Positions 10,901 through 13,900 of a DNA stretch of 64,000 nt are shown here, piece after piece. Position 1 is the stretch's first letter. Each line of letters starts with the position of its first letter. Made by a program: the position numbers. Where the stretch lies: assembly GCA_963729895.1 (NCBI GenBank), contig CAVSQB010000009.1, positions 1 to 64,000 on the forward strand, in the 5' to 3' direction. Source of the stretch: an uncultured Fibrobacterota bacterium (GTDB lineage Bacteria > Fibrobacterota > Chitinivibrionia > Chitinivibrionales > FEN-1185).

Positions 10901-13900
10901 CGATTTCAGGATGCGCAGGATGTTGAACTTGACCCCAAAATCGTACGCCACCACGTTATACCGGTGGCCGTTCTTCGAGGGTTCCCATTCGTACGGCTTT
11001 GCGCACGTCACGTTCTTGACAATGTCGACATCCGCCAGGCCCTTCCAGGCTTTTGCCTTGTCGACAAGATCCGCCGTGGAAGGCGCCTTCTCTCCCGCCC
11101 AGATGACGCTTTTCATGGCGCCGCCGATCCGCAGGCGCCGCGTGAGTTTGCGTGTGTCTATGCCGCACACGCCCGTCACGCCGCTTTCCCGAAGGTAATC
11201 GCCGAGCGACCCCTGCGACCGGAAATTGGACGGATACGGGCACAGTTCCTTTACCACGAACCCCGCAACCTGGACGCGCGACGATTCCACGTCCGCTTCG
11301 TTGACGCCGTAATTGCCGATAAGCGGGTAGGTCATGGCGACGATCTGGGAACAATAGGAAGGATCGGTCAGCACTTCCTGATACCCGGAGAGGCTTGTGT
11401 TGAACACCGCCTCGCCGAAGCATTCTCCGGCAGCGCCGAATCCTTCACCCTCAAATACGGTTCCGTCTTCTAAGGCCAGTATTCCTTTCAAGCGGTACCT
11501 CTCTACCTGTTTCCAAAAGCAAAAATCCAAAAAATCTTCTTCATCCTGCCCGATCCTGCCCTCTCCCGGTCATCCTGACAAAAAAAAAGACACCTACCCT
11601 TGTCACGGTAGATGTCTTTCGGAAAAAATCCGGTTCTCGAAGACCGCGTCTCCCGGAGGCCACACGCCCCCGTGAAGGAGAGAAGAGAAGAATGCCCGGT
11701 GCGGTAGAAAGAGTAACCAGAAATGCCCGGCATTCTTCGGCATTTTCTAAATCCCGGTGCCTTTCAGGGCGCTCGCCGACACCCCATATTTGGGATAGGA
11801 AATATGACCTTTACACAACATTTTGTATTTCTTCCCTCTTTTGGCCTGTACCAAAATAATGTTTTCTGAAATGAGAGTCAAGGTGAGATTGCGAGAAAAA
11901 TGTTATGAAATTATTAGAAGTGAATGTTCCGATTTCCCGGCTGCCTGCCGTCGGACATGTGTTATGGGCGTTCCCCTCGCCGAGCTCGGGTCGGCCCTCC
12001 CTCCGGGCTCGGCTGGTCAGCCTCGGTGCCGGACCGCCCTATGCCGCTGTGTCTCGATACACCGCTCCCCGAGTGTCCCGCAGGGATGTACCGAGGGGAG
12101 CGGCACTCGACAATCAGCGCCGGGGTCGGCCGGCACTGCGCTCCTGCGCACCACTCCGGTCCGGCCTAACGCATAAATCAAGAAGTGCAAACCTCACCTG
12201 GCTCATCAGCCCCCTATTGAACCTGGATCAATCGCCATCGTTATTTCTCCATGGTAAACCACTTTTCCGTGTCTCGCTTCTCGACAAGGGCCTTTGCAAA
12301 GTACCGGAACGCAGCATGCTTTGTCTGCCAGGTTGGGGCAAACGATCATTACAATTACGTCAACGATCAAGACCATCGCTCAATGGTTCTCTACAGTCCA
12401 GGTGCACGGCGCGGGTGCCCCCCAACCGAGGATTGGATGCTTGCAGTCACTTCCACTTGGGGGGTCACCCGGCTCAGCCATCCAAACGCATTTGCTTTTT
12501 CCCTTAATCGCCCATCAACCCGTTCGGGCCGCTCAAACATTTCCCCAAAGCCCGGCTTCATAAAGTAATTTTCTATCAGCAATTTCAATCCGACCCGACA
12601 ACCCCGGAAACACCGGATCATGCCGAAAATTCTGAAGATTGAACGCCTGTCGGACCTTGTCTTTCGCTACAGGATAGACGCTCCGCGTATTGCCAAAATG
12701 CGAAAGGCGGGCCAATTCGTCATCGTGCGGGCCACCACCGAAGGCGAGCGGATTCCGCTCACTATTGCAAATGCAAGTCCCGCGGAAGGCTGGATAGAAC
12801 TCATTTTTCAGGTTGCTGGAAAATCCACCAAGATCCTGTCGATCCTGAGGGAGGGAAACGAAATCATCGACCTTGCGGGACCGCTGGGCAAACCGACCCG
12901 CATCGCCAGGTTCGGCAGATGCCTGTGCGTCGGCGGCGGCGTGGGCGTCGCCGCGCTGTATCCTATTGTCAATGCGCTCAAGGCCGCGGGCAACGAGATA
13001 GTCACAATATTGGCCGCCCGCAGCTCGAAGTTGTTATTGTTGGAAAACGAAATGGGCCGGATTTCCAACAGGCTTATCATCGCCACCGACGACGGTTCAA
13101 AAGGCGGCAAAGGGTTTGCGGCGGACGCCGTAAAACAGGTGCTTGCCGAAGGTGAAGCATTCGATTTCAGCGTGATCATCGGGCCGGCAATGATGATGAA
13201 GATCACTTCGGCCGTGACCGTGGGGGCAGGTATCAAGACGGTGGTATCGCTCAACCCGATCATGATCGACGGCACGGGTATGTGCGGCGGGTGCCGCCTC
13301 ACGGTCGGCGGCGAGACCAAGTTCGGGTGCGTCGACGGGCCCGAATTCGATGCCGCAAAAATAGACTGGGATGAAATGATCAAGCGGCTCAACGGCTACC
13401 GCGGCTTCGAAATAAGCGCCGCGGAGAGACACAATTGCATTGTGACAGGCAGGCCGGCATGACGACAAGCAGGAAAAGTGCCGTGTGCGGAGAGCGCATT
13501 CCCATGAAAGAACAAGACCCGAAGGTGCGGGTGAAGAATTTTAACGAAGTGCCCCTCGGTTACTCCGAATCCGAGGCTGTTCTGGAGGCACGGCGCTGCC
13601 TGCAATGCAAGAATCCTGTGTGCATCAAAGGCTGCCCCGTGAGCGTGAACATCCCGGAATTTGTCGGGCTTATTGCAAACGGAAAATTTGTGGAGGCCGC
13701 ACGCCGCATCAAGGAAGACAACGCACTGCCAGCGATTTGCGGCCGCGTGTGTCCGCAGGAAACCCAGTGCGAAGAGAAATGCATTCTGGGAAAAAAGGGC
13801 GCCCCCCTCGCCGTCGGCAACCTCGAACGCTTTGCCGCGGATTTCCAAATGGCGCGCGGTGAATTCGCCGCGCCCGAGATGCGGCCGAAGAACGGGAAGA

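Follow-up and report, generated by a model that had tools for sequence, protein, structure and literature searches.

A probable translated-leader attenuator with a conserved WPPG core and a putative NrdR operator in front of carAB in an uncultured Fibrobacterota genus

The carAB leader and its promoter region

The window analysed here, a stretch of 64,000 nucleotides from the 4.41-Mb, 96.7% complete genome of an uncultured Fibrobacterota bacterium, carries on its minus strand both genes of carbamoyl-phosphate synthetase. The small chain is encoded by carA (10400..11491, TTG start at 11491, Pfam PF00988 and PF00117) and the large chain by carB (6587..9880, Pfam PF02786, PF25596, PF02787 and PF02142), with a four-helix-bundle gene between them on the same strand (9967-10368). 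Full-length carA is present as a single copy in the genome, and argF, argG and pyrB were each found in all five genus genomes tested, so one carbamoyl-phosphate synthetase would supply both the arginine and the pyrimidine pathway. Upstream of carA lies the uncalled 46-codon ORF that an earlier note on this DNA had described (11603..11743, minus strand); it starts with ATG at 11743 and continues through the 5′ arm of an intrinsic terminator (11580..11620, minus strand; stem 11620-11585, 9 T), with similar hairpins in other families. The genome holds no second copy of this leader, and our searches of the openly available literature found no paper on it, as had been the case before.

For comparison, metagenomes were scanned with a pattern keyed on the terminator alone; the peptide was not used, which avoids selecting for it. 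Twelve loci were recovered, with carA next in nine and three unrelated. GG(V/I)WPPG is encoded in eight of the nine carA-linked loci, in line with the eight contigs counted earlier, and three loci are duplicate copies of genomes. Together with six genus genomes these loci give 12 distinct leaders, of which 11 have the core and one, L054, is without it. Changes were counted on a tree for which only sequence lying outside the leader ORF was used; four of its nine inner branches are unresolved, so that all step counts are approximate.

The reading frame is open up to the terminator in 10 of the 11 core-bearing copies, and in L056 a stop falls just ahead of the arm. The start codon had been placed at one and the same distance, in frame, in five genus genomes and eight contigs; this is true of nine of 11 copies (127 nt), whereas the distance is 130 nt in the other two and 22 nt in L054. 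Where the stretch from ATG to terminator differs in length, it does so by multiples of 3 (three changes: +3, +3 and -105), unlike the spacing from promoter to ATG, which varies freely between 129 and 139. No clear Shine-Dalgarno sequence was seen at the leader ATGs, and the 3′ end of the 16S rRNA of this genome was not found for scoring. A possible upstream ORF of 24 aa, ending in KGTGI (11747..11821, minus strand), has its stop 3 nt ahead of the leader ATG, and an ATG-started ORF of 11-34 aa terminates at this site in all 12 leaders. It may feed ribosomes to the leader ATG, although this is uncertain.

Transcription would begin from a sigma-70-type promoter, TTGACT-17-TATTTT (11853..11881, minus strand), whose hexamers are nearly invariant in the 12 distinct genus leaders and which has counterparts of the same type in many other families. 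The earlier note mentions neither the three hairpins described below nor the tandem NrdR boxes that lie downstream of this promoter. Box 1 (11813..11828, 13.5 bits) spans roughly +18 to +33 relative to the inferred transcription start, and box 2 (11781..11796, 10.4 bits) follows 32 bp past it, across a 16-bp linker. By a matrix trained only on the nrdJ, nrdD and nrdR promoters, the carA pair comes third among the genome's 16 tandem pairs, behind nrdJ and nrdD. The spacing is 32 bp in 11 of the 12 leaders and 31 bp in one, which conforms to the 31-32-bp rule for NrdR boxes (PMC2892513), and the linker sequence is free. The most conserved bases of such boxes are C4, A6, A8, T9, T11 and G13 (PMC13584703); these six critical bases occur in both boxes of all 12 leaders, and no other pair in 4.4 Mb has all six in both boxes (595 single matches). 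NrdR is encoded in all eight family genomes, and nrd genes bear the same boxes. In none of the 55 carA regions analysed from outside the genus do two paired boxes each exceed 2 bits. On these comparisons the tandem boxes are very likely an NrdR operator. No report of NrdR at carAB was found in the literature, including the accessible parts of PMC12051234, PMC13584703 and PMC5343134, although supplementary tables of NrdR sites might list carA.

A core constrained as peptide and as RNA

Conservation of the leader ORF is concentrated in codons 23-31, LHGGVWPPG (11651..11677, minus strand), a segment that doubles as a hairpin, H2, and was examined by both parsimony and pairing tests. Steps by codon position are 1/1/17 in this core, compared with 9/9/9, 27/21/26, 5/10/7 and 31/34/33 in the flanks and 60/38/297 in 110 codons of carA. 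The earlier pairwise count of 161 synonymous against 20 non-synonymous differences was reproduced exactly, but all 20 of the latter trace to a single sequence, L004, and reflect only two events (H to R and V to I). A twelfth core-bearing member, P0001, is represented solely by a protein record from an independent gene call; its M1 and W28 are in register, and it reads S-I-M-H-G-G-V-W-P-P-G before crossing the terminator in another frame. Protein-level selection on the nine core codons is thus supported by these comparisons, as had been proposed, and the signal holds after allowing for pairing in H2.

The core appears to be confined to this lineage. A profile search of 1.84 billion representatives returned one true relative, P0001, and two unrelated long proteins, and among 296 phylum genomes strong matches were confined to the six genus genomes. 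Weak matches (E 1.4e-4 or worse) occur in 29 further phylum genomes, and of the seven of these that were inspected one has WPP, within a frame of 129 codons. A loose core-plus-arm pattern hit at least 119 loci over GTDB genomes; among the matches listed, five have both core and terminator, and these five are copies of genus genomes already in the set. In a word-based protein search, alignment A3 gave seven candidates, none of which scored, and P0001 retrieved only itself. No Pfam family matched the leader peptide at E 0.1, and no homology to a known leader-peptide family was seen. No Rfam family reached gathering in 14 loci, the leader in the window giving three chance matches (E 4.5-9.4). A shuffle null for the variable zones being free of stops gave 0.16-0.61 per sequence, which is weak. 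The findings on the peptide apply to one uncultured genus.

Three hairpins precede the terminator. H1 (11687..11738, minus strand) spans codons 2-19 with a 15-bp stem and a variable loop, shows two-sided changes in five of 15 pairs and no codon-position bias, and has a stability of -16 to -22 kcal/mol in all 11 copies; on this comparative evidence it is a candidate pause hairpin for RNA polymerase. Behind it a U/C tract (11674..11692, minus strand) is visible in all 11 copies and is, by analogy, a candidate UTP/CTP-sensitive pause. The Phe and Ser codons upstream of the core accept non-synonymous T/C changes, and this stretch is therefore better taken as a pyrimidine tract. H2 has 10 bp, a bulged A and a 5-nt loop, and pairs the Gly-Gly codons with the Pro-Pro codons; 97% of cells are paired, with two-sided changes in one pair. 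H3 (codons 33-38, with a trailing U run; 11623..11646, minus strand) has two-sided changes in five of six pairs and 79% of cells paired, but is weak (-2.6 to -11.9 kcal/mol), and the U run behind it is present in nine of 11 copies, being absent from L004 and L060. For the terminator 97% of cells are paired, a value biased by the scan pattern, which fixed these bases. Hairpin covariation beats 500 of 500 shuffles in cells paired and all slid controls, although the structure was drawn from the same sequences and the controls therefore lean in its favour.

A change from paired C to U costs little, so that C sites test the effect of the codon apart from H2. All eight changes at such sites fall on the three that are synonymous, out of eight sites (p 0.0004; 0.003 for wobble changes only), and at unpaired core sites five of seven changes fall on the one synonymous site of six (p 0.002). 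Four-fold sites in the H2 stem are in turn slower than those in carA (1.7 vs 3.3 steps, p 0.011). H2 alone fails to account for the synonymous-site pattern, and the slow stem sites point to constraint on the hairpin; both constraints thus act, and the core is best described as under dual constraint, as peptide and as RNA hairpin.

Terminator geometry and the leaders of other families

The last Pro codon of the core ends 34 nt ahead of the terminator hairpin, just as the earlier note had it (37 nt in L060), and the distance from the Gly codon is 31 nt. In E. coli, repression of a hairpin failed when the ribosome was over about 27 nt away (PMC4824070). A ribosome stopped at WPPG, at 31-34 nt, should therefore permit termination, and a stall would mean OFF, while one that had advanced to about codon 35-40 should prevent termination. 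Only one of 65 gene-end terminators in the genome lies within 12 nt of its stop codon, and the median distance is 30 nt. Avoidance of this kind is typical where trailing ribosomes block nearby hairpins, and the spacing is thus indirect evidence that the host couples translation to transcription.

A search of the 11 copies for a conserved antiterminator, which could reverse the sign, found none. Strong pairing between the 5′ strand of H2 and the terminator arm is seen only in L056, L060 and L005 (-13 kcal/mol); in the other eight copies shuffled sequences do as well as this alternative pairing, and the terminator is the predominant form in the ensemble (0.69-1.0). Conserved Arg codons are likewise lacking ahead of the terminator arm in the leader copies. 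A classical amino-acid attenuator of the trpL or hisL type was rejected for want of both features.

A polyproline stall upstream of the pyrL terminator increased termination in the absence of EF-P, and in the wild type the insert shifted termination by less than 2-fold (PMC5021804). WPPP and GGGGWPPP stall in vitro, and EF-P does not relieve GGGGWPPP (PMC11669330). That WPPG slows the ribosome is probable.

Outside the genus the terminator has a simpler setting. Among 81 class genomes carA is present in 67. Upstream regions of 64 non-genus carA genes were fetched and 55 analysed, leaving out nine loci (L115-L123) that are second copies or have carA inside an operon. A promoter of the genus type and a leader terminator occur in 32 of the 55. 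Terminators in other families had been described as standing without the peptide; this is not to say that they have no leader peptide, since 28 of the 32 carry a short leader ORF, with an ATG placed 17-27 nt ahead of the hairpin and a frame that reaches it (frames 15/7/6), a count in which kin are not independent and the 17-27 nt window was set after seeing the data. With one leader taken per genus, 14 of 16 have such an ATG vs 2.1 expected from shuffles. A translated-leader valve therefore appears to be order-wide, the sequence of its peptide being free outside the genus.

L054 has this short form and is nevertheless sister to L004 within the genus (support 100/99), which indicates that it lost a 105-nt peptide module in frame. 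It retains the promoter, the NrdR operator, the start codon and the terminator. The occurrence of the valve across the order and its persistence in L054 argue against the peptide as the basis of the attenuator. The earlier proposal of an arrest-peptide attenuator hence stands as far as a translated leader controlling a terminator, and selection on the protein, are concerned, but not in making the peptide its foundation. By these comparisons the valve appears older than the peptide, and the module dispensable in one lineage. The same survey bears on the arginine repressor: Arg_repressor is indeed lacking in the genus (none in five genomes tested, none in six within the class survey), but it is found in only one of 81 class genomes, and its absence neither explains the peptide nor singles out the genus, so that the argument once built on it falls away.

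Proposed attenuation of carAB and its relation to known systems

The best explanation, to which we give an even chance as a whole, is a ribosome-coupled attenuator of the pyrBI type, supplemented by a genus-specific WPPG brake and an NrdR operator. A translated-leader attenuator is very likely, and pyrimidine NTPs are, by analogy, slightly favoured as its signal. A ribosome that reached the 5′ arm of the terminator before polymerase had finished the U tract would block the hairpin, and carAB would be transcribed; if the ribosome were late, the hairpin would form and transcription would stop. Low UTP or CTP would hold polymerase at the U/C tracts behind H1 and H3 and allow the ribosome to catch up. 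In the 105-nt module, LHGG(V/I)WPPG would make the ribosome linger 31-34 nt before the hairpin, a distance at which it would no longer block; the pause would favour termination and serve as a timer, which polymerase pausing would need to exceed. NrdR, a sensor of ATP and dATP, would bind the two boxes downstream of the promoter and repress carAB along with the ribonucleotide reductases. Sequence comparison bears out the ORF, the terminator, the hairpins, the dual constraint on the core and the operator; translation, pausing, stalling, the signal and NrdR binding are each what we infer. E. coli pyrL works without a conserved peptide, so the role of timer is ad hoc, and the selection might just as well point to an additional sensor. 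Further weak points are the low stability of H3 in several copies and the lack of its U run in two of 11.

Selection on nine contiguous residues would also suit a metabolite-gated arrest peptide added to the basic valve, in which arginine, or some other compound made from carbamoyl phosphate, lodged in the exit tunnel, stalls the ribosome at WPP and lets the terminator form. Stalling would then turn the operon off, as befits control by an end product, a single carAB serves both pathways, and the fungal CPA1/arg-2 genes are under such control (PMC11550727); moreover, the L23M change in P0001 is conservative yet would abolish pairing at this site. However, most of the class genomes that have no ArgR also have no such peptide, the upstream regions of argC and argF in this genome are by inspection without a leader of this kind, and the module was lost in L054. 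The constraint is also limited to the nine residues nearest the stall, and WPP motifs stall without ligand (PMC11669330). We regard this alternative as doubtful, and the same holds for the fuller scheme that it would allow, a two-input switch for carAB in which a ligand-gated WPP arrest (stall meaning termination, for example with arginine) operates under the NrdR operator, so that one 270-nt leader would read dNTP, pyrimidine NTP and amino-acid state. It is improbable that PPG instead senses EF-P activity or charged tRNA-Pro/Gly, a fall in either of which would make the ribosome lag and turn carAB off, tying the cost of the enzyme to translation capacity. PPG is an EF-P-dependent stall, such stalls raise termination at pyrL (PMC5021804), and EF-P is found in all five genus genomes (four over the cut-off), but only two Pro codons are involved, conservation of G-G-V-W would be superfluous for a tRNA sensor, and a physiological link to carbamoyl phosphate is not apparent. 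Attenuation at proline codons does occur in Salmonella mgtP, although there low proline raises transcription, the opposite sign (PMC3641672).

The two remaining readings dispense with the peptide as a regulator in cis. If the core were purely RNA, serving as a protein-binding hairpin (for PyrR, for example) or as an antiterminator strand, with the peptide a by-product, this would account for the GG-GG/CC-CC hairpin and its slow four-fold sites, for both amino-acid changes lying at unpaired bases, and perhaps for the three copies in which H2 pairs with the terminator arm. PyrR is present in all five genus genomes. Yet C sites that tolerate wobble vary only where the change is synonymous, variation in the loop is at third codon positions, and the alternative pairing fails in the eight copies noted above; nor did RF00515, the PyrR binding loop, score over the cut-off in five genomes, as a PyrR-dependent attenuator would lead one to expect. 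We consider this very improbable. A small protein acting in trans, its overlap with the terminator incidental, would explain a short motif constrained at the protein level, but the flanks of the core are free (27/21/26 and 31/34/33 steps), the C-terminus of P0001 is in another frame, and the motif occurs only at the carA locus among the 296 phylum genomes, all of which makes it extremely unlikely. The ribosome-coupled attenuator with a WPPG brake thus remains our preferred reading; in any case the leader is real and merits a bench test.

To our knowledge, few stall peptides occur naturally in bacteria, and the known ones switch genes on. A conserved WPPG whose position lets a stall shut down a biosynthetic operon would serve a novel purpose, in a layout of stall before terminator that a study of EF-P has built artificially (PMC5021804). 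Natural controls exist in L054, with its in-frame deletion, and in sister families, with their minimal leaders. The NrdR operator at carAB, if true, would bring the opening step of pyrimidine synthesis into a regulon that has been described as confined to ribonucleotide reductases.

The closest known system is pyrBI of E. coli, whose leader pyrL is likewise a short ORF running into an intrinsic terminator before a gene of the pyrimidine pathway; the E. coli rph-pyrE attenuator is a kindred system. At pyrL, close coupling along the leader keeps the hairpin from forming (PMC5021804). The genus leader shares with it a candidate pause hairpin and U-rich tracts, a terminator without a conserved antiterminator, and an ORF that reaches the arm (in 10 of 11 copies, L056 stopping at the arm, and in L054 too). 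An unconstrained peptide, as in pyrL, is found in the order-wide form of the other families but not in the genus. Unlike pyrBI, the leader precedes carAB, the order-wide ORF has merely 6-9 codons ahead of the hairpin, and the genus form adds the WPPG module, three hairpins and an upstream NrdR operator. The carA gene of Pseudomonas aeruginosa also has a leader peptide and pyrimidine attenuation, with arginine control by ArgR, and the accessible part of its description, from which the likeness is drawn, mentions no conserved stall motif (PMC4997734). The arginine attenuator peptide of fungi (the CPA1/arg-2 uORF) precedes the same enzyme (PMC11550727), but it is eukaryotic, blocks scanning, stalls at a stop codon and has a demonstrated dependence on arginine, whereas the output in the genus would be transcription termination, and no sequence likeness is evident. 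With metabolite-sensing arrest peptides (AAP, TnaC and SpeFL) the genus leader has in common a short motif conserved in amino acids. The core resembles WPPP, the last four residues of the selected motif FxxYxIWPPP, and G-(I/V)-W-P-P corresponds to positions 5-9 of the tested FQKYGIWPPP, L004 having GIWPP itself (PMC11669330); that motif is artificial, however, whereas the genus core is natural, stands before a terminator, has neither F nor Y, and ends in PPG rather than PPP. The NrdR operator shares with those of nrd operons two 16-bp boxes, a free linker of 15-16 bp and the six critical bases, and differs in its target, carAB, and in having both boxes downstream of the inferred transcription start. 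The underlying switch is therefore of a known kind, while the peptide-constrained brake and an NrdR operator at carAB are new in the literature searched.

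An upstream reading frame and the core bases in the genus leaders

In the window, an ATG-started upstream ORF (positions 11747-11821, minus strand) stops 3 nt ahead of the leader ATG, and the same arrangement is found in all 12 leaders of the genus (the window and 11 others), with TAG as the stop codon in 11 and TAA in the remaining one. The C-terminal end of this ORF is K-G-x-(G/R)-I; L054, the leader without the peptide module, carries K-W-A-R-I instead. The leader start codon is not accompanied by a clear Shine-Dalgarno sequence, and it is possible that the upstream ORF supplies this start by re-initiation.

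In three leaders (L056, L060 and L005), the bases of the core Gly-Gly-Val codons are approximately a copy of the terminator 3′ arm, and their pairing with the terminator 5′ arm amounts to about -13 kcal/mol. The hairpin formed by the core bases (H2) is less stable in these same copies. Possibly, these Gly-Gly-Val bases are a vestigial antiterminator, or they may reflect an origin by duplication.

Surroundings of carAB and other loci

A gene for a four-helix-bundle protein of the 23S rRNA IVP family (9967-10368, minus strand) lies between carA and carB, and carB is followed by a gene for an IS4-type DDE transposase (4874-6076, minus strand). The intergenic repeat at approximately 11960-12180 of the window, with 132 blastn matches in the genome, is REP- or MITE-like. 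In genome G005, the carA locus is present in two identical copies on contigs C15 and C55 (L003 and L009), possibly an assembly duplicate.

The pyr operon (pyrR-pyrB-pyrC) is almost leaderless and has no attenuator, despite encoding PyrR: at G000:C1:12187-12735 and in L082-L086, a TATTTT box lies about 7-10 nt ahead of the pyrR ATG (five of five genomes). Strong NrdR-like boxes (19-20 bits) precede nrdR itself (G000:C32:30663), an SMC-like gene (G000:C18:99646) and an HU/IHF-like gene (G000:C5:403387), the latter two assigned from reading N-termini.

Upstream ORFs in carA leaders outside the genus

Among 30 non-genus leaders examined, eight have a uORF that ends 0-7 nt 5′ of the start codon of the ORF running into the terminator (terminator ATG), or overlaps it.

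The carA leaders of genus g8 (L031, L040, L045, L046, L048, L026 and L027) are of a different design, wherein a conserved uORF of 15-18 codons is followed by a second ATG and then by a hairpin, which lacks a U tract in six of the seven. Five of these uORFs share P-S-T-x-H-P-E.

In two carA leaders of family f3 (L105 and L106, from G009 and G010), a 24-codon uORF, whose stop is immediately 5′ of the terminator ATG, contains GAH(L/V)PP, which is at once a small hairpin. This uORF is possibly an independent brake, and its HxPP resembles a known stall motif.
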